A stretch of DNA of 64,000 bases from Eledone cirrhosa. Its lineage: Eukaryota. Location of the stretch: positions 28,272,001 to 28,336,000 of the forward strand of contig OZ024750.1 of assembly GCA_964016885.1 (NCBI GenBank). Reading direction: 5' to 3'. Positions 4,306 through 62,526 of the stretch are shown here, piece by piece (positions within the stretch are counted from its first letter, which is position 1; each line of letters starts with the position of its first letter). Both the position numbers and the translations under genes were made by a program. The notes beneath the pieces were generated by a model. The model saw nothing but the letters and a program-made list of their open reading frames with translations. It did no database searches and was not told the DNA's origin.

Positions 4306-4523
4306 TTAACTCTTTAGCATTTACATTACTCTATATATATACTGTTATATTTTCATGGTAAAGGTTTTACCTCACTTAATATGGAGTCTATGAGAATTTG
4401 ATATTATTTATTTTGAGAACAATACATTCACATCAATATGGATGGCCAGTTACAGCCGGTTTGAACAGAAAGAGGTGAGAGAATTCTGGCCAGATACGGT
4501 CAGTTTAAATGCTAAAGGGTTGA
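4306..4523. mobile_element. piggyBac-like MITE
   Basis: TTAA-CTCTTTAGCATTT..AAATGCTAAAGGG-TTGA; reverse homologue of 10460-10688. Confidence 0.7.
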
Positions 4524-4859
4524 AATAACAACAAAAGTTGAAAAAGATATTAATAAACATTGGGTCGCTTTGATAGGGAACAAAAACCTGGGGTCTGTTT
4601 GTTAGACCCAGTTCGATTCTGATCCGAAGTATTGAGCAAGGTATTTTCAAAATACACTGTTTTACTCTTTTATTGGTTTTAGTCAGTAGACTGTGGTCAT
4701 GCTGGGGCAGCAACTTATAGAGATTTAGTTGACCATATCGACACCAGTACCTATTTTTTTGTCAGATCTGTTCCATATTTTATTGATTTCAAATTTTGTC
4801 GAATGTTTGGTTTACTGGACATAAACACAGACATATTCGTACACACACACTCATGTATG

Positions 4860-4903
<44 letters not shown>

Positions 4904-4906
<3 letters not shown>

Positions 4907-5094
4907 CGAAGGAAATGTGGTAAGGAACCAGATTGACCATAACGCACCAAAGTACTCAATACTTAGGGTAGTAGAGTGGGTAATAGGAACCAGTAGGACC
5001 CCGACGGCTGAGCTCAAGCCGTTTCGACCGCTAAATCTAGTCCAGAATTAGCCGTCGAAACAGCTTGAGCTCAGCCGTCGGGGTCCTACTCGTT

Positions 5095-5099
<5 letters not shown>
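4904..5099. mobile_element. PLE family A foldback element in (TA)n
   Basis: Inverted arms span 4983-5099 and each carries GAAAC(G/A)GCTTGAGCTCAGCCGTC-GGGGTC. Short end TTCCTA(TA)n; long end TTCCTTCGTTA(TA)n. Confidence 0.85.
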
Positions 5100-5159
<60 letters not shown>

Positions 5160-6260: not shown

Positions 6261-6347
6261 TAGAAGCCATTTCTATATTAAATATTTGTACTCTGCCATG
6301 TATTGAGTACCTTACTGTGGTTACCTCAAATTGAACCTGGGATAAAT
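6261..6347 (+). mobile_element. Family D tail remnant between TA tracts
   Basis: TAGAAGCCATTTCTATATTAAA..GTATTGAGTACCTTACTGTGG matches 17359-17447. Confidence 0.7.
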
Positions 6348-6364
6348 ATATATATATATATATA

Positions 6365-6552
6365 TAACGAAGGAAATGTGGTAAGGAACCAGGTGGACCA
6401 TAACGCACCAAAGTACTCAATACTTAGGGTAGTAGAGTGGGTAATAGGAACGAGTAGGACCCCGACGGCTGAGCTCAAGCCGTTTCGACGGCTAATTCCA
6501 GAATTAGCCGTCGAAACGGCTTGAGCTCAGCCGCGTCGGGGTCCTACTCGTT

Positions 6553-6557
<5 letters not shown>
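6365..6557. mobile_element. PLE family A foldback element in (TA)n
   Basis: Near-identical to 4904-5099, with a different apex (GCTAATTCCAGAATTAGC). Confidence 0.85.
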
Positions 6558-8946: not shown

Positions 8947-9370
8947 GGCGGTGGATTGGCAGTATCGGTAGATGGTCAGACGCCATGCTTTGCAGTATAG
9001 AGTTACGGCCCTTTCTGATGTGAGATCAAATCCTGCCGAGGTTAACTTTGTCTTTCATTCTGACGGGGTCGATAAAATACAGTACCAGTAATGCACTGGG
9101 GTCGATTTAATTGACTTTCCCCTCCCCACAAAATTGCTGGCCTTGTGCCAAATGTAGAAACAATTATTATTATGCGGTGTGTTATTGGCAGTATCGGTAG
9201 AGGGTAAGACGCCATGCTTTGCAGCATAGAGTTACGGCCCTTGCCATTCTGAGTTTAAATCCCGCCGAGGTTAACTTTGCCTTTCATTCTTACGGGGTCA
9301 ATAAAATAAAGTACCAGTAATGCACTGAGATAATTGCTGGCCTTGTGCCAAAAAGTAGAAATAATTATTA
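8947..9370 (+). mobile_element. Two tandem SINE1 copies
   Basis: Same A/B boxes and core. Confidence 0.85.
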
Positions 9371-10330: not shown

Positions 10331-10459
10331 GAGAATTCAGAGATGAGCTCTTTTCTATGTTGCTCTTAGGGATCTGGGTTATTTGGGATCTGTGTGGTTG
10401 TTAACTTACTTTGGATTGGGGGTAGGGGGGCTTTCTACAATTGGGGTATAATTTTCTTA

Positions 10460-10688
10460 TTAACCCTTTTGCTTTAAAAACCGCCATATCCGGCCAGAAT
10501 TCTCTCACCTCATTTTGTTCAAACCGGCCATAACCAGCTGCTCATATTTATGTTAAGGTATTGTTCTCAAAGTAAATAATATCAAAAACTCATAGATTCA
10601 ATATTATGTGAGATAATTATGTAAGATAAAGTGTTTACCATGAAAGTACAATAGTATATTTAGAGTAATGTAAATGCTAAAGGGTTAA
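10460..10688. mobile_element. piggyBac-like MITE
   Basis: TTAA on both sides; TIRs CCCTTTTGCTTT / AATGCTAAAGGG. Confidence 0.75.
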
Positions 10689-14640: not shown

Positions 14641-14823
14641 AATAATTGTTTCTACATTTGGCACAAGGCCAGCAATCAACCAGTACATTACTGGTACTTT
14701 ATTTTATCGACCCCGTAAGGATGAAAGGCAGAGTTAACCTTGGCGAGATTTGAACTCAGACTATAAAGGGCTGTAACTCTTTGCAGCAAAGCATGGCGTC
14801 CGACCCTCTACCGATACTGCCAA
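14641..14823 (-). mobile_element. SINE1
   Basis: Near full-length match to the other copies. Confidence 0.85.
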
Positions 14824-14837
14824 TAATATTTAAGTAT

Positions 14838-15118: not shown

Positions 15119-15659
15119 GTATAATATTGATAATTGTTTCTACTTTTTGGCACAAGGCCAGCAATTATCCAGTGCATTACTGGTACTTTATTTTATCGAC
15201 CCCGTAAGGAATGATACTGCAATATATTTAAGTATAATATTAAGGACATTGGCGTGGCTCCCCACGTTCTCGTTGGTGTTTGTGGGTGTTGTGTTATATT
15301 ATATTGGTTCCAAGTGACTAAAGTCACCCACTGTGTTTTCATAAGGATGGTTATTGCGTGTCGAAGATAATCAAGTAATAAATCTAGATACATAAATCAC
15401 GAGCGAGGTGATACTAACGTAAATGATCTTCTAGATGCTTTAGTAACAATGGAATGAGGAATATATTTAAACAATAAAAATAGTTATTTTTAAAAATATA
15501 ACTATCATATATCTTTTTTTTTTTTTAAATGAGTAAATATAAAATACTAATTCCACCTCATATATTGATATGATTTCACTGATTCACTGCACTTTGTGTA
15601 TCATAAAAGCCCCTCCTCGGTCTTCTAATAGTGTCACTATCAACACCTTACCTTTTAAT

Positions 15660-15849
15660 AATTGTTTCTACTTTTGGCACAAGGCCAGCAATTGACCCCA
15701 GTGCATTACTGGTACTTTATTTTATCGACCCCGCAAGGATGAACGGCAAAGTTAACCTTGGCGGGATTTGAACACAGAACATAAAGGGACATAATTCTAT
15801 GCTGCAAAGCATGGTGTCTGGTGCTCTACCGATACTGCCAAACAACTGC
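15660..15849 (-). mobile_element. SINE1 with a 14-bp target-site duplication
   Basis: CCTTACCTTTTAAT occurs at 15646-15659 and 15850-15863. Confidence 0.85.
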
Positions 15850-17162: not shown

Positions 17163-17490
<328 letters not shown>

Positions 17491-18803: not shown

Positions 18804-18946
18804 AGATATGAAAAGATTTAGGACCCCGACGGCTGAGCTTCAGCCGTCGGGGTCTTGAATCTTTTCCTATTACCCACTCTACTATCCCAAGTATCGAGTA
18901 CTCCGGTGGGTTATGGTCTAACTGGTTTTTACCACACCCTATCTGA
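18800..18946. mobile_element. PLE family A variant, folded back at the stem III loop
   Basis: GACCCCGACGGCTGAGCTTCAGCCGTCGGGGTC followed by a family-A-like tail; flanked by TA. Confidence 0.75.
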
Positions 18947-18961
18947 TATATATATATATAT

Positions 18962-19157
18962 AAGAAAGAGTCGAGGCCCAACAGCTGAGCTCTTGCTGTT
19001 TCAACAGCTAGTTCCAGACGGTTGAGTGTGGAACTAGCTGTTCATAAACAGTAAGAGCTCAGCTGTTGGGCCCGACTCTTTCTAATATAGTCACACTCTA
19101 CCATCCCAAGTATCGAGGTACTCTGTTGAATAATGATCTAACTTGTTTAATCCTAAT
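18962..19157. mobile_element. Diverged family-A subfamily foldback element
   Basis: Arms carry GAAACAGCAAGAGCTCAGCTGTT-GGGCC; tail CACTCTACCATCCCAAGTATCGAG resembles family A. Confidence 0.7.
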
Positions 19158-20266: not shown

Positions 20267-20700
20267 AATAATTGTTTCTACTTTTGGCACAAGGCCAGCA
20301 ATTTCCCAGTGCATTACTGGTACTTTGCTTTATCGATACTGTAAGGATGAAAGGCAAAGTTAACCTCGGCGGGATTTGAACTCAGTCCGTAAAGGGACGT
20401 AACTCTATGCTGGAAAGCATGGGGTCGGACTTTTTATTGATACTGGGTCAGACGCCATGCTTTTTAGCATAGAGTTACGTTCCTTTACGGACTGAGTTCA
20501 AACCTCGCCGAACACATTAATAATTCTAACATTGGTACCAGGACATCAATTTAAAGAGAAGGGGAAAGTCGATTATATCAACCCCCAATACTTAATTGGT
20601 AATTTATTTTATCGATCCCGAAATGATGAAAGGCAAAGCTGACCTCAGCGAGATCTGAACTAAAAATGTAAAGGGACTTAACTAAATACATCCCAGCATT
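20267..20700. mobile_element. SINE1 (minus), an inverted SINE1 head fragment (plus), and an older minus copy
   Basis: 20446-20510 is the reverse complement of about 20367-20430. Confidence 0.75.
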
Positions 20701-22866: not shown

Positions 22867-23188
22867 TTAGAAATTAGAAATTATGAGCTTTCACCGTATT
22901 TTAGACTAAAGAAATGTCTAGCCTGATAGTGGGGTTTATAACCCTCGGAGAAATGGAAAAAGATGAGTGTTGCCGTACATGGTCTGGATAACCAAAAATG
23001 TGGCCTCCCATGTACGGCAACACTCATCTTTTTCCATTTCTCCGAGGGTTATAAACCCCACTATCAGGCTAGAAATTTCTTTAGTCTAAAATACGGTGAA
23101 AGCTTATAATTTCTAATTTCTAATTTTCAAACTCGCGCACCGTTTCAAAAACATACTTACATGTTTTGTTTACATTTATAATTTGCTT
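22867..23188. mobile_element. Family E foldback element in (TA)n (about 115-bp arms plus tail)
   Basis: 22867-22982 is inverted against about 23008-23123. No intact HHR core was recognised. Confidence 0.7.
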
Positions 23189-27219: not shown

Positions 27220-29617
27220 TATAATTATCTCACATAATATCTCACATAACATTTACATGATTCTATATTTACTATTGTATTTTTGTGGCAAGGGCTTTAC
27301 CTCACATAATTATCTCACATAATATCTCACATAACATTTACATTACTCTATATTTACTATTGTATTTTTGTGGCAAGGGCTTTACCTCACATAATTATCT
27401 CACATAATATCTCACATAACATTTACATGACTCTATATTTACTATTGCATTTTTGTAGTAAAAGTTTTACCTCACATAATTATCTCACATAATATCTCAC
27501 ATAACATTTACATGACTCTATATTTACTATTGCATTTTTGTAGTAAAAGCTCTACCTCACATAATTATCTCACATAATATCTCACATAACATTTACATTA
27601 CTCTATATTTACTATTGTATTTTTGTAGTAAAAGCTTTACCTCACATAATTATCTCACATAATATCTCACGTAACATTTACATGACTCTATATATACTAT
27701 TGTATTTTTGTAGTAAAAGCTTTACCTCACATAATTATCTCACATAATATCTCACATAATATTTACATGACTCTATATATACTATTGTATTTTTGTGGCA
27801 AGGGCTTTACCTCACATAATTATCTCACATAATATCTCACATAACATTTACATTACTCTATATTTACTATTGTATTTTTGTAGTAAAAGCTTTACCTCAC
27901 ATAATTATCTCACATAATATCTCACATAACATTTACATGACTCTATATTTACCATTGTATTTTTGTAGTAAAAGCTTTACCTCACATAATTATCTCACAT
28001 AATATCTCACATAACATTTACATGACTCTATATTTACCATTGTATTTTTGTAGTAAAAGCTTTACCTCACAATTATCTCACATAATATCTCACATAACAT
28101 TTACATGACTCTATATTTACCATTGTATTTTTGTAGTAAAAGCTTTACCCACACAATTATCTCACATAATATCTCACATAAAATTTACATTACTCTATAT
28201 TTACTATTGTATTTTTGTAGTAAAAGCTTTACCTCACATAATTATCTCACATAATATCTCACATAACATTTACATGACTCTATATTTACCATTGTATTTT
28301 TGTAGTAAAAGCTTTACCTCACATAATTATCTCACATAATATCTCACATAACATTTACATTACTCTATATTTACTATTGTATTTTTGTAGTAAAAGCTTT
28401 ACCTCACATAATTATCTCACATAATATCTCACATAACATTTACATGACTCTATATTTACCATTGTATTTTTGTAGTAAAAGCTTTACCTCACACAATTAT
28501 CTCACATAATATCTCACATAACATTTACATTACTCTATATTTACTATTGTATTTTTGTAGTAAAAGCTTTACCTCACATAATTATCTCACATAATATCTC
28601 ACATAACATTTACATGACTCTATATTTACTATTGTATTTTTGTAGTAAAAGCTTTACCTCGCATAATTATCTCACATAATATCTCACATAACATTTACAT
28701 GACTCTATATTTACTATTGTATTTTTGTAGTAAAAGCTTTACCTCACATAATTATCTCACATAATATCTCACATAACATTTACATGACTCTATATTTACT
28801 ATTGTATTTTTGTAGTAAAAGCTTTACCTCACATAATTATCTCACATAATATCTCACATAACATTTACATGACTCTATATTTACTATTGTATTTTTGTGG
28901 TAAAAGCTTTACCTCACATAATTATCTCACATAATATCTCACATAACATTTACATTACTCTATATTTACTATTGTATTTTTGTAGTAAAAGCTTTACCTC
29001 ACATAATTATCTCACATAATATCTCACATAACATTTACATGACTCTATATTTACTATTGTATTTTTGTAGTAAAAGCTTTACCTCACATAATTATCTCAC
29101 ATAATATCTCACATAACATTTACATGACTCTATATTTACTATTGTATTTTTGTAGTAAAAGCTTTACCTCACATAATTATCTCACATAATATCTCACATA
29201 ACATTTACATGACTCTATATTTACTATTGTATTTTTGTAGTAAAAGCTTTACCTCACACAATTATCTCACATAATATCTCACATAACATTTACATGACTC
29301 TATATTTACTATTGTATTTTTGTGGCAAGGGCTTTACCTCACATAATTATCTCACATAATATCTCACATAACATTTACATGACTCTATATTTACTATTGT
29401 ATTTTTGTAGTAAAAGCTTTACCTCACACAATTATCTCACATAATATCTCACATAACATTTACATGACTCTATATTTACTATTGTATTTTTGTGGCAAGG
29501 GCTTTACCTCACATAATTATCTAACATAATATCTCACATAACATTTACATGACTCTATATTTACTATTGTATTTTTGTGGTACAGGCTTTACCTCACATA
29601 ATTATCCCACATAATAT
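27220..29617. repeat. 85-bp tandem array, about 28 copies, derived from the piggyBac-like MITE
   Basis: Period 85 (27301, 27386, 27471). It runs into the rest of the MITE, which ends AATGCTAAATGGTTAA at 29755. Confidence 0.95.
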
Positions 29618-29851
29618 CGAATCTATGAAATTTTTATATATATTTTGAGAATAATGCCTCAACGCCTCTATGAGTGGCCGGTTACGGCCGGTTTGAACAG
29701 AAAGCGGTGAGAGAATTGTGGCCAGATATGGCCTGTTTTAATGCTAAATGGTTAAACTGTTTCAAAACAAACATACTGGATAGATGCAGCTGGTTCAACA
29801 TACGTGATTGTGCATATTTGTGTGTGTGTATGTATATATATATATATAATA

Positions 29852-30111
29852 TATATGATAATAAGGACGCTGCAGAGTTGCAAATGGGTTACATATGAAA
29901 AAAGTTTGTCCTTCATCAGTGGTCTTCCAACCATCATAGGCATTTCATCGCTTTAAAGACCATATACCTCCGGTTGGTGCGAGCAACGGCTAAAAAAAGT
30001 CGTTGCGACACGTAAATAAAGGGGACGCACCAACCGGAGGTATATGGTCTTTAAAGCGATGAAATGCCTATGATGGTTGGAAGACCACTGATGAAGGACA
30101 AACTTTTTTCA
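29852..30111. mobile_element. Family F foldback element in (TA)n
   Basis: About 29893-29981 is inverted against about 30026-30112; the arms contain GAAATGCCTA and CTGATGA. Confidence 0.75.
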
Positions 30112-30522: not shown

Positions 30523-30843
<321 letters not shown>

Positions 30844-33291: not shown

Positions 33292-33521
33292 ATAGGAAAA
33301 AGTATGACCCCGGACGGCAGAGCTCAAGCCGTTTCGACGGCTATTTCTGGACTTAATTTAGTCCTAAATTAAGTCTAAATTAAGTCCAGAAATAGCCGTC
33401 GAAACGGCTTGAGCTCTGCCGTCGGGGTCATACATTTTCCTATTACCCAATCTACTACCCTAAATATTGAGTACTCTGGTGCGTTATGGTCCATTTGGTT
33501 CCTTACACATTTCCTTCGTTA
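33292..33521. mobile_element. PLE family A foldback element in (TA)n
   Basis: Same arms and both fixed ends, in the opposite orientation to 4904-5099. Confidence 0.85.
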
Positions 33522-33534
33522 TATATATATATAT

Positions 33535-33819
33535 ATTTCGTTTCTGAATTTGTTTAGCAAGATTCTTTATCTGAAATCGTGGTGTTGAAACCGATATTGT
33601 TATACTTTGGGAGGGCCATGAAGAGGTCACAGAGTGTGTGACGATAAGGACTATGACTATATATAAACAACTATCTGGTTGTGGAACCAACCAACCAACC
33701 AGAAATGTATAAGTTTGTAGATTTGTAAATTTATAAATTTATAAATATATAATAAATTGAAGTGAACCAACTGGTGCGTGTGTTTCTTATTGGCAACATG
33801 GCCCTCCCAAAGTATAACA
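33535..33819. mobile_element. PLE-like family B inverted element (HHR 5' end clipped at the junction)
   Basis: Same two ends as 21233-21556; the junction falls at CATGAAGAGGTCAC. Confidence 0.8.
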
Positions 33820-40436: not shown

Positions 40437-41040
40437 CTTTTCTCTGGTATTATATTAACTCTATCTATATATTTCCCTTTTCTCTGGTATTATATTAACT
40501 CTATCTATATATTTCCCTTTTCTCTGGTATTATATTAACTCTATCTATATATTTCCCTTTTCTCTGGTATTATATTAACTCTATCTATAGGCGGTGGATT
40601 GGCAGTATCGGTAGAGGGTCGGACGCCATGCTTTCCAGCATAGTTACGTCCCTTTACGATCTGAGTTCAAATCCCGCCGAGGTTGACTTTGCCTTTCATC
40701 CTTACGGGGTCGATAAAATAAAGTACCAGTAATGCACTGGGTAATTGCTGGCCTTGTGCCTAAAGTAGAAACAATTATATTAACTCTATCTATATATTTC
40801 CCTTTTCTCTGGTATTATATTAACTCTATCTATATATTTCCCTTTTCTCTGGTATTATATTAACTCTATCTCTATATTTCCCTTTTCTCTGGTATTATAT
40901 TAACTCTATCTATATATTTCCCTTTTCTCTGGTATTATATTAACTCTATCTCTATATTTCCCTTTTCTCTGGTATTATATTAACTCTATCTATATATTTC
41001 CCTTTTCTCTGGTATTATATTAACTCTATCTATATATTTC
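40437..41040. repeat. 40-bp minisatellite interrupted by SINE1
   Basis: Unit CCTTTTCTCTGGTATTATATTAACTCTATCTATATATTTC. Confidence 0.95.
40590..40777 (+). mobile_element. Full-length SINE1 inserted in a 40-bp minisatellite
   Basis: GGCGGTGGATTGGCAGTATCGG..GTAGAAACAATTAT interrupts the array. Confidence 0.9.
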
Positions 41041-41582: not shown

Positions 41583-41585
<3 letters not shown>

Positions 41586-41792
41586 CGGAAGAAATGTGGT
41601 AAGGAACCAGGTGGACCATAACGCACCAAAGTACTCAATACTTAGGGTAGTAGAGTGGGTAATAGGAATGAGTAGGACCCCGACGGCTGAGCTCAAGCAG
41701 TTTCAACGGCTAATTCTGGACTCAGAATTCTAGTCCAGCATTAGCCGTCGAAACGGCTTAAGCTCAGCCGTCGGGGTCCTACTCGTTCCTAT
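41583..41792. mobile_element. PLE family A foldback element in (TA)n
   Basis: Same arms and ends; apex CTGGACTCAGAATTCTAGTCCAG. Confidence 0.85.
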
Positions 41793-51440: not shown

Positions 51441-51589
51441 AACGAAGGAGTTGTGGTAAGGAACCAGATGGACCATAACGCACCAGAGTACTCAATACTT
51501 AGGGTTGTAGAGTGAGTAATAGGAAAATGTTCCAGAAATAGCCGTCGAAACGGCTTGAGCTCTGCCGTCGAGGTCATACATTTTCCTAT
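51440..51589. mobile_element. PLE family A inverted element with asymmetric junction
   Basis: The truncated long arm is joined to a short arm that starts in stem II (TCCAGAAATAGCCGTCGAAAC). Confidence 0.8.
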
Positions 51590-53348: not shown

Positions 53349-53386
<38 letters not shown>

Positions 53387-53388
<2 letters not shown>

Positions 53389-53707
53389 GGAGGTGAGTTT
53401 TATTGTAGTACAATAAAGCAATGCAGATATCGGATAAGAAGCACTCTACAGTTTGTGGGACTGGAGTATGCATAATATAAGATCAAAAGATGGTTAAAGG
53501 AGTTCCATATATTTTATTATGCGCATTTCAAAAACAAACATCATCATATGTTGATTTAAAACTGCACTATCAACAAGTGTTTTTTAGCCTTCATATCATG
53601 TTCTCCTGTTTTATCTGATGAAAACACAAATATTATTGTTTGATGATGTTTGTTTTTGAAATGCGCATAATAAAATATATGGAACTCCTTTAACCATCTT
53701 TTGATCT

Positions 53708-53712
<5 letters not shown>
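53387..53712. mobile_element. PLE-like family C inverted element in (TA)n
   Basis: The long arm (minus) stops at the stem II loop (about 53548) and joins a plus-strand short arm carrying a full HHR. Confidence 0.85.
53609..53675 (+). ncRNA. Type I hammerhead ribozyme (family C)
   Basis: TTTTAT CTGATGA..GAAA TGCGCA TA ATAAAA. Confidence 0.85.
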
Positions 53713-54333: not shown

Positions 54334-54338
<5 letters not shown>

Positions 54339-54406
54339 AACAAGTATAACCCCGACGGCAGAGCCCAAGCCGTTTGGTCCATCTGGTTCCTTACCACATT
54401 TCCTTC

Positions 54407-54410
<4 letters not shown>
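54334..54410. mobile_element. Minimal family A inverted remnant
   Basis: TAGGAAC..CCCGACGGCAGAGCCCAAGCCGTTT joined to GGTCCATCTGGTTCCTTACCACATTTCCTTCGTT; flanked by TA. Confidence 0.7.
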
Positions 54411-55327: not shown

Positions 55328-55515
55328 GTTGATTGGCAGTATCGGTAGAGGGTCGGACGCCATGCTTTACAGCAAAAGAGTTAAGGCCCTTTATGATCTG
55401 AGTTCAAATCCCGCCGAGGTTAACTTTGCCTTTCATCCTTACGGGGTCGATAAAATAAAGTACCAGTAATGTACCGGGTATTGCTGGCCTTGTGCCACAA
55501 GTAGAAACAATTATT
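55328..55515 (+). mobile_element. SINE1
   Basis: Full match; ATTATTGAAAAAA flanks both sides, a probable TSD. Confidence 0.85.
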
Positions 55516-55566
55516 GAAAAAATGGGAGGGACAATTCTTTAAAAAAGAGTTTTATAATGTATATAT

Positions 55567-61066: not shown

Positions 61067-61140
61067 TACCGAATCGGTTTCGAGTCTCAAAAATAAACAG
61101 AGTCCATACGGCACCCGTTGCAAAGATAAACTCTCGTCAG
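61067..61140 (-). ncRNA. Hammerhead-like motif with a large stem II insert
   Basis: CTGACGA GAGTTT..AGACTC GAAA CCGATTCGG TA; stem I is weak. The adjacent segment 61129-61198 is a palindrome. Confidence 0.5.
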
Positions 61141-61197
61141 GAACATATACTCTATTATATATATATATATAATAGAGTATATGTTCCTGACGAGAGT

Positions 61198-61375
61198 TGG
61201 ATTGGCAGTATCGGTAGAGGGTCGGACGCCATGCTTTCCAGCATAGTTACGTCCCTTTACGATCTGAGTTCAAATCCCGCCGAGGTTGACTTTGCCTTTC
61301 ATCCTTACGGGGTCGATAAAATAAAGTACCAGTAATGTACTGGGTAATTTCTGGCCTTGTGCCAATAGTAGAAAC

Positions 61376-61413: not shown

Positions 61414-61619
61414 AGAGAGAGAGAGAGAGAGAGGGAGAGAGTCTGCAGTGCTGAGACTGTGGAGACCACTAATTATGCAAAGAGAGTATAGAGATATGTA
61501 AAATCCCGACCGTGGCACCAAGCGCTTTTGTGACTTTACCTCCCTCCCTCTCTTTCTCTCTCGTTATATATATATATATATAATATAAGATCAAAAGATG
61601 GTTAAAGGAGTTCCATGTA

Positions 61620-61686
61620 TTTTATTATGCGCATTTCAAAAACAAACATCATCATGCAATAATATTTGTGTTTTCATCAGATAAAA
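61620..61686 (-). ncRNA. Type I hammerhead ribozyme (family C)
   Basis: Reverse complement of 62338-62404. Confidence 0.85.
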
Positions 61687-62337
61687 CAGGAGAACATGAT
61701 ATGAAGGCTAAAAAAACACTTGTGGATAGTGCAGTTTTAAATCTACATATGAAAAGTGGTTTTAGATTGATGTGTGATATTGGGAAAAATATTTTATTTA
61801 GAGAGGGGGGGATGAAAAAGGAGGAGGAGATGAGAGGGAGAGATGGGTGATAGAGAGAAAGAGATAGCTTTTATAACTGAGAGGAGATATACTGTCCCAC
61901 ACAGAGAGGTTGAAAACCGTTGGAAGATAATGTATAAACCCCAAAAAAAATTTTTGAAAATCAACGAAAGGAGGATATGTGCGAGGAAAAAGTATTTTAT
62001 TTAAGGAGGTCCTTAAATAAAATACTTTTTCCTCGCACATATCCTCCTTTCGTTGATTTTCAAAAATTTTTTTTTTTGGGGGGGTTTAACATTATCTTCC
62101 AACGGTTTTCAACCTCTCTGTGTGGGACAGTATATCTCCTCTCAGTTATAAAAGCTATCTCTTTCTCTCTATCACCCATCTCTCCCTCTCATCTCCTCCC
62201 CCTTTTTCACCCACCCCCCTCTCTAAATAAAATATTTTTCCCAATATCACACATCAATCTAAAACCACTTTTCATATGTAGATTTAAAACTGCACTATCC
62301 ACAAGTGTTTTTTTAGCCTTCATATCATGTTCTCCTG

Positions 62338-62404
62338 TTTTATCTGATGAAAACACAAATATTATTGCATGATGATGTTTGTTTTTGAAATGCGCATAAT
62401 AAAA
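62338..62404 (+). ncRNA. Type I hammerhead ribozyme (family C)
   Basis: TTTTAT CTGATGA AAACACAAATATTATT gcat GATGATGTTTGTTTTT GAAA TGCGCA TA ATAAAA; predicted cleavage after 62398. Confidence 0.85.
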
Positions 62405-62526
62405 TACATGGAACTCCTTTAACCATCTTTTGATCTTATATTATGCATACTCCAGTCCTACAAACTGTAGAGTGCTTCTTATCCGATATCTGCATTGCTT
62501 TATTGTACTACAATAAAACTCACCTC

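Follow-up and report, generated by a model that had tools for sequence, protein, structure and literature searches.

Introduction

The Hydra clade of C-terminal EN+ Penelope-like elements (PLEs) is described as carrying an RWK motif, a DKT motif, a CxCX5C linker, CxxC and CxH motifs around E and N, and (TA)n targets (Craig et al., 2021; PMC8557442). The Penelope elements of Adineta vaga display an inverted pseudo-LTR (pLTR) with a palindromic junction, an optional tail, and a putative TATA box plus initiator (Inr) in the pLTR (Arkhipova et al., 2013; PMC3846280), and an internal promoter is reported for Penelope itself (PMC2377424). The Penelope/Poseidon protein PAc (Poseidon, Anolis) nicks and extends both target strands in vitro, and its reverse transcriptase (RT) starts internally, near the pLTR-ORF junction, at two sites that enclose a tail (Frangieh et al., 2024; PMC11167929). 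A hammerhead ribozyme variant with a U3-A8 core pair is known from Schistosoma PLEs (PMC4209133). These papers name two open questions, how PLEs build tandem and inverted insertions, and whether PLE hammerheads cut in vivo (PMC8557442, PMC4209133, PMC11167929).

The window analyzed here is a 64-kb stretch of the Eledone cirrhosa genome (assembly GCA_964016885.1, 3.0 Gb; contig OZ024750.1, positions 28,272,001–28,336,000), and it contains foldback copies of several repeat families with hammerhead motifs. An earlier note on this DNA proposed that the fold of the ribozyme dictates the structure of these insertions, either through foldback of the cDNA on the stem II hairpin with subsequent self-priming, or through annealing there of two cDNAs primed from opposite target strands.

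Results

Family A Foldbacks in the Window

Element positions were numbered from the A of TTT|AGTCCAG in loop II of family A (+1), and arm ends were mapped on natural long copies. The copy at 4906–5098 is a foldback flanked by (TA)n target tracts on the left (4863–4905) and right (5099–5156). Its tailed arm, 133 nt long with the RNA sense on the minus strand (4906–5038), covers element +6 to +138 and begins at the distal RT start site, while the inverted, untailed arm of 61 nt on the plus strand (5038–5098) covers -1/+1 to +60 and begins at the proximal RT start site; base 5038 is common to both arms, and the +6 end was read by eye across two substitutions. Position +1, the A of an initiator-like TTA|GTC motif, falls at 5039 (plus strand), and is both the stop point of most arms and a putative capped RNA start. 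Judged from the predicted fold of an intact natural copy, the minus strand at 4998–5036 contains the 3′ half of a type I hammerhead, comprising the stem II 3′ strand, GAAA (5025–5022), stem III, GUC, and the stem I 3′ strand, with the predicted scissile bond after GUC, between 5003 and 5002. The one-sided "tail" of 78 nt (4906–4983, minus strand) spans the interval between the two RT start sites, and continues into the ORF in long copies.

Further family A foldbacks were located at 6367–6554 (minus strand, arm ends +7 and +3), at 33295–33519 (plus strand, subfamily A3, both arm ends +1 with locally duplicated filler between the arms), at 41585–41789 (minus strand, arm ends +1, with a G before it, and -1), and at 18963–19110 (plus strand), where the subfamily has diverged from the references. 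The spans that fold back are 4986–5096, 6447–6554, 18963–19083, 33295–33440 and 41665–41789, and the junction differs in each, as expected from the view in the earlier note that the five are independent events. The same note held that all five turn in the stem II region. This is correct for the four mapped copies, whose arms end just 5′ of the stem II 3′ strand, in loop II (an apical extension of stem II according to the predicted fold), while the apex of the 18963 copy has no exact mapping. Three other inverted family A copies lack the arrangement of both arms at this place, with the copy at 18806–18870 turning in the stem III loop, and those at 51442–51589 and 54337–54408 having arms of very unequal length.

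The parent of family A is represented by natural long copies of ∼3.5 kb with 98–99% mutual identity, and exact 42-nt matches genome-wide number 4,698 for subfamily A1 and 5,240 for A2, the window's own subfamily. Judged by its motifs, the element encodes RT plus, C-terminally, a GIY-YIG endonuclease in a single ORF, with YRDDG and VIY..AYIG motifs and a GIY-YIG-type domain in natural copies L091 and L093, and the first in-frame ATG at +232; pLTR, tail and ORF form one uninterrupted run at L080, L086 and L119/L282. The ORF also contains the Hydra-type motifs RLRWR (RWK being present as RWR), HSDKT, CNCPDRSIC and CNLC..E..N..CKH. A Pfam search with three pieces of the ORF at E ≤ 0.1 returned no families. 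The architecture is that of an EN+ PLE, with partial pLTR tandems, an inverted truncated partner and a one-sided tail, and an adjacent inverted arm accompanies 56 of the 72 copies in the A1 census described below. Placed by its motifs against the published clade description (PMC8557442), family A is a young Hydra-clade PLE. We also noted a 12-codon upstream ORF that begins in the tail of L282 (+104 to +142) and is out of frame with the main ORF. Tail and promoter motifs are common to families A and D, and L250 is a family D copy whose tail switches to an A tail. Identity with animal non-LTR retrozymes was considered and rejected, since family A copies are dispersed foldbacks with half a ribozyme and not tandem monomers with an intact hammerhead; we noted no treatment of inversions in a retrozyme preprint (10.64898/2026.07.22.740005).

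Long family A copies contain a complete hammerhead in the order stem I, core, stem II, a loop of ∼40 nt, GAAA, stem III and GUC, with the scissile bond after +41, and with +1 as a bulged A in a predicted apical helix that extends stem II. The 5′ core half reads UUGAGAA in A1 long copies and CUGAGAA in A2 long copies, and core pair 3-8 is U3-A8 in A1 and a C3/A8 mismatch in the few A2 long copies sampled. The minimum free energy fold of an A1 copy displayed hammerhead topology, with three stems around the core, and the A2 copy did not fold in this way. An Rfam search of the window at the gathering threshold produced no matches, and a search for CTGANGA upstream of the family A core produced 50 matches, none of which was the true master core, the real half being YUGARAA. 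Thus, the earlier statement that inversion removes the CUGANGA half is right in that the 5′ core half is absent from short copies, and wrong as to the motif, which family A does not contain.

Census of Foldback Apexes

Position-ordered pattern censuses were chosen, since 15 random 10-kb stretches gave at most three motif matches each, and the samples are the first copies along contig C1 and not a random genome draw. The A1 census included every match to a 35-mer of the A1 tail on this contig up to 53.6 Mb, giving 72 consecutive copies. Forty-one of the 49 tailed arms that get to +8 stopped in the 12-nt window from +8 to -4. The next 76 nt upstream (-5 to -80) contain the stem II 5′ strand, and none of the eight survivors stopped there; six stopped further upstream, and two ran off the fetched DNA. 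Expressed per nucleotide, the stop rate of tailed arms was 0.121 in the 12-nt window, 0.005–0.006 downstream of it, 0 from -5 to -80, and 0.0007 beyond. Among inverted arms, 42 of 56 stopped between +8 and -4, and none between -5 and -80. Even the most generous geometric null for length decay, a comparison suggested in the earlier note, was rejected (p ∼ 1e-30), and the family A apex hotspot is real, with clustering far beyond chance that distance from the 3′ end is insufficient to explain. In A2, about 20 of 30 arms stopped at the hotspot (21 by script, with three long copies carrying substitutions corrected by eye), and a foldback arm reaching +1 has 12,590 strand matches genome-wide.

The 51 short foldbacks of the A1 census contain 45 distinct junctions; by junction type, 14 foldbacks are blunt, 18 are filled, 14 share 1 nt, and 5 share at least 2 nt. 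In each of the three A subfamilies, the arms bear their own subfamily's haplotype, and long copies exist. The foldback events of family A are therefore independent. We give next to no credence to descent of all hairpins from a single ancestral foldback master, or a handful of them, that multiplied in the manner of a MITE or SINE; one identical apex is common to at least 30 loci when that apex is used as the query, and minor lineages of this kind may exist, but the junction diversity of the unbiased census, together with the subfamily haplotypes and the long copies in all three subfamilies, refutes an ancestral foldback as the main source.

Arms in family A start at two fixed sites, +60 and +138, 78 nt apart, and for 50 of the 56 inverted arms the start is +60/61. 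In 21 of 56 foldbacks, the untailed arm outreaches the tailed arm on the 5′ side (by at least 4 nt in 15), and so is no copy of the tailed cDNA. The tail, in turn, cannot come from an untailed cDNA, and a pair of cDNAs is therefore required. Arm lengths are coupled (51 short-short, 4 long-long and 1 mixed; p = 1.4e-5), and the haplotypes of both arms agree in 73 of 75 common-haplotype pairs, with L008 and L148 combining arms of two subfamilies. The coupling and the haplotype agreement together suggest that both arms were copied from one RNA template.

These data bear directly on the proposal that cDNA folds back on stem II and self-primes, or that two cDNAs anneal through stem II. Family A apexes do lie between the two stem II strands, and a few junctions fall on local palindromes, both among the 5 of 51 that share at least 2 nt and at the stem III palindrome (19 of 97 loci, see below). 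However, self-priming is unsupported because it needs the stem II 5′ strand in the product, and no product has it at the turn, as shown by all 72 tailed arms and all 56 inverted arms. The untailed arms that outreach their partners hold sequence absent from the tailed arm, and the arms of L008 and L148 come from different subfamilies. Of the version with two cDNAs, the cDNAs themselves are borne out, but annealing is not, as 46 of 51 junctions share 0–1 nt. Families B, C and D, moreover, do not turn in stem II. We consider either form of this proposal very improbable.

Position +1, the Probable 5′ End of the Element RNA

The stop boundary at +1 is one-sided, and the sequence there, TTA(+1)GTC, is initiator-like by comparison with the Inr consensus. 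In family A, TAAATACCA is found at -25, and the same motif is at -24 before ACA(+1)GTC in family D, although the D ribozyme lies downstream, so that the spacing from TAAATACCA to YAGTC is nearly equal in the two families. In A2 and A3 the TATA-like box is degenerate, and families C and G have no evident box. Non-inverted copies joined directly to (TA)n begin at the same base, +1.

Untemplated G is an accepted mark of a copied cap in full-length L1 and SVA insertions (PMC4859970). Among family A copies joined to (TA)n at +1, 148 have G or C at -1, with 91 G to 9 C among the matches listed (100 of 148), and the template base at -1 is T in 73 of 73 long-copy matches. An inserted G was present in 11 of 64 joins at +1 (by eye) vs. 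4 of 133 at +6/+7 (p = 0.0009). All 4 inserted G/C bases at the +7 control are also G, and part of the G bias may stem from the (TA)n flanks, so the cap-G test rests on the insertion rate and not on the G:C ratio. At foldback junctions at +1, the next base was A in 45, C in 25, G in 24 and T in 6 (by eye, 100 among the matches listed), with no clear cap signal, because many of these bases can come from the other arm. In L300 and L174, an arm that has come as far as +2 or +4 switches to an ORF-containing copy of the same RNA (the second copy in L300 itself begins at +5), and such jumps are expected for RT running off the end of its template.

Taken together, we think it probable that the arms stop at the capped 5′ end of the element RNA, where both cDNAs run off and are joined head to head. 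Position +1 is thus a putative capped Pol II start, read indirectly from the inserted G of genomic copies. Points against a capped start are that family B is almost without a hotspot, that family G arms are spread, and that +1 is a bulge in a predicted helix.

The other families supply a comparison, and among 30 anchored arms from each, stops in stem/loop II numbered 0 in B, 2 in C and 2 in D. Family B, which has a canonical hammerhead, showed 4 of 53 arm calls at -7 to -1. By eye, 10 of 30 arms in family C stopped no more than 5 nt from TTTTC|ATATG, a point that lies 71 nt upstream of the core, and in family D, 25 of 30 arms stopped at -12 to +4 of the core, with the whole CTGATGA kept in 21 of 30, these 30 matches including both arms of some loci. 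Forty-one incidental arms of family G were spread over ∼25 nt, and 13 fell inside stem II. Automated calling overshot at 5 loci because of the palindromic apex of family C, and it is not reliable for the inverted arms of long B and C copies. With so few stops in stem/loop II, and with the C and D hotspots upstream of the ribozyme, the claim that the ribozyme fold dictates insertion structure is not upheld.

In the window, the earlier note had listed similar junctions in all four of these families. Two of them agree with its description, namely the D foldback at 17291–17447 (plus strand), which turns at the 5′ edge of the core, and the G foldback at 30642–30759 (plus strand), which turns in loop II at 30697. 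The other two differ. The C copy at 53386–53712 (plus strand; junction 53544) retains the ribozyme in full on its sense arm, which begins at C's own hotspot, 71 nt upstream of CTGATGA, and has this core intact; only its short, tailed inverted arm ends in stem/loop II. The B copy at 33537–33819 (plus strand) has a sense arm that begins inside the core motif (33619), not in stem II, where B has no hotspot, and the other two B copies in the window have a whole core motif.

A different explanation of the stop at +1 is that the RNA extends upstream, and that RT is blocked at +1 by loop II structure or a protein, or a nuclease cuts there, so that the ribozyme region sets the apex indirectly. The bulged A in the predicted extension of stem II, the sharpness of the stop, and the location of some G apexes in stem II would fit such a block. 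However, a block by the hairpin would be expected at +18, where stem II has its 3′ base, and not after the helix has been unwound, survivors pass the remaining structure without stops, and neither the excess of inserted G nor the C and D hotspots outside the ribozyme would be explained. We regard this alternative as unlikely, and favor termination at the capped RNA end.

Several observations on these and other repeats are recorded here. A family D copy at 6261–6345 begins at the predicted ribozyme cleavage site and is joined to (TA)n, and a long family C copy at 61583–62441 has an 860-nt palindrome. Family A arms that start at +1 to +12 are fused to other sequences at L034, L044, L040, L051 and L060, including family B pieces that end in B stem II, so that a CTGAAGA half joins the A 3′ half; these chimeric ribozyme-like A/B junctions probably arise by template jumps. 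Family B copies L188 and L189 carry a dense A-to-G patch over the ribozyme region, ∼170 nt upstream of the anchor, which resembles ADAR-type RNA editing before copying. Palindromic foldbacks of families outside this study lie at 22868–23122, 29897–30110 and 20366–20511. A tandem array of an ∼85-bp unit (94–96% identical) occupies 27221–29618 and has dispersed relatives of ∼220 bp at 4306–4531 and 10454–10688, and a dispersed repeat of ∼190 bp, a SINE-like size, is present in more than 15 copies, some tandem or inverted (859–1251, 8952–9369, 14641–14824, 15654–15849, 40591–40783, 55328–55518 and others). The window also contains 200 N near 61129–61198, apparently an assembly gap.

A Second Peak at the Scissile Bond

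A1 foldbacks with an apex at about +29 to +45 gave 262 matches, and 97 loci among the matches listed (100 of 262) were tallied by eye. In 24 of these, both arms end exactly at +42 with filler between them, 27 are direct joins of the CCCC|GGGG type (1-nt ambiguity), and in 11 one arm ends at the site while its partner falls short by up to 3 nt. The stem III palindrome is the turning point in another 19, and the last 16 are of mixed type. When A1 tailed arms that start near (TA)n within +31 to +47 were examined, the start was exactly +42 in 19 of 49 loci (by eye; p ∼ 1e-11). The peak persists in A2 but is weaker (36 of 99 loci), whose core is known from few copies, and extrapolation from the matches listed puts its share at ∼1.1% of A2 copies vs. 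3.5% of A1. In family D, a cleavage-site peak was sought by eye in 75 rows and none was found, with both arms at the site in ∼3 of ∼45 loci. About 1–3% of events thus appear to use RNA that had already been cut by the ribozyme, and the peak is possibly a fossil of in vivo cleavage, although it may also come from a stall at the base of stem III, which is within 1–2 nt of the site.

Self-priming on an antisense template, as proposed for the palindromic head-to-head PLE junctions in Adineta (PMC3846280), accounts for both the head-to-head geometry and the near-perfect palindromes. In family A, however, the insertion reads as a G on the sense strand and stands at an initiator of sense orientation, non-inverted copies have the same 5′ end, and the second peak coincides with the scissile bond of the sense ribozyme. 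We find this explanation highly improbable here, and prefer two cDNAs of a sense RNA.

Discussion

The events that would produce family A foldbacks can be outlined as follows. A pLTR promoter, with a TATA-like box near -27 and the initiator TTA(+1)GTC, would lie inside loop II of the hammerhead and start transcription at +1. The endonuclease would nick both strands of (TA)n, and RT would start internally at +60 and +138 of one RNA, from the two target strands. In most events, the cap would be only 60 and 138 nt from these starts, so that both cDNAs run off and their ends are joined; the rarer kilobase arms could come from priming at the downstream pLTR of a read-through RNA, and transcripts begun in a solo or 3′ pLTR could be templates just as well. 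Because the promoter would lie inside loop II, the 5′ leader would have half a ribozyme, and a transcript whose 5′ end has only the 3′ half could not remove its own cap in cis. The short copies, from which the upstream box is absent, are probably dead ends.

In a wider reading, the genome would be a fossil record of the PLE cycle, recording for most events double priming in the 5′ leader and run-off at the cap, together with a promoter that splits the ribozyme and leaves cutting to the read-through (3′) copy alone, and, at the scissile bond, in vivo cleavage and retrotransposition of the cut RNA. We advance this as a whole tentatively, with belief and doubt nearly in balance. If it is true, head-to-head palindromes are explained without an antisense template, and the scissile-bond peak, three times weaker in the subfamily with the mismatched core, becomes in vivo evidence of cleavage by a PLE hammerhead. 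A young family with ∼10,000 exact copies in two subfamilies permits tests at nucleotide resolution, with one predicted capped start, two RT starts and one cleavage-site peak, and the same counting could be applied to any assembled genome to map where PLE transcripts start and whether their ribozymes act, with no need of RNA data.

The inverted partner, the tail and (TA)n targeting were known already (PMC8557442), as were the TATA/Inr of the pLTR and palindromic junctions (PMC3846280). In our literature search, which covered mainly the main texts of open-access papers, PLE inversion apexes were nowhere described as clustering at a start site or a cleavage site.

Two target-primed cDNAs yield an inversion in L1 twin priming also, where the two arms come from non-overlapping parts of the RNA, whereas family A arms overlap, begin at fixed sites, and have one common 5′ end. 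The extra G that marks a copied cap is a further likeness to L1 (PMC4859970).

Family A shares with the described Hydra clade the RWR/RWK-like and DKT motifs, the CxCX5C linker, CxxC/CxH, (TA)n, a hammerhead, an inverted truncated partner and a one-sided tail (Craig et al., 2021; PMC8557442). It differs in the length of the tail (78 nt vs. 30–40), in its non-canonical hammerhead with a U3-A8 or C3/A8 core and a loop II of ∼40 nt, and in the 5′ hotspot, which we did not find in the main clade description (PMC8557442). With Adineta vaga Penelope it has in common the inverted pLTR, the junction palindrome, the tail, and a putative TATA box plus Inr, but the Adineta junctions were read as antisense self-priming, while the family A data favor two sense-RNA cDNAs ending at the start site (PMC3846280). 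Our model and the PAc system agree in the nicking and extension of both strands, and in two internal RT starts that lie shortly after the hammerhead and bound the tail (Frangieh et al., 2024; PMC11167929). PAc belongs to another clade and was studied in vitro, where ribozyme cleavage was dispensable for insertion; we found in that report neither a map of the 5′ ends of genomic copies nor RNA reads ending at the cleavage site (PMC11167929). Unlike the PAc data, the genomic copies of family A pile up at +1 and at the scissile bond.
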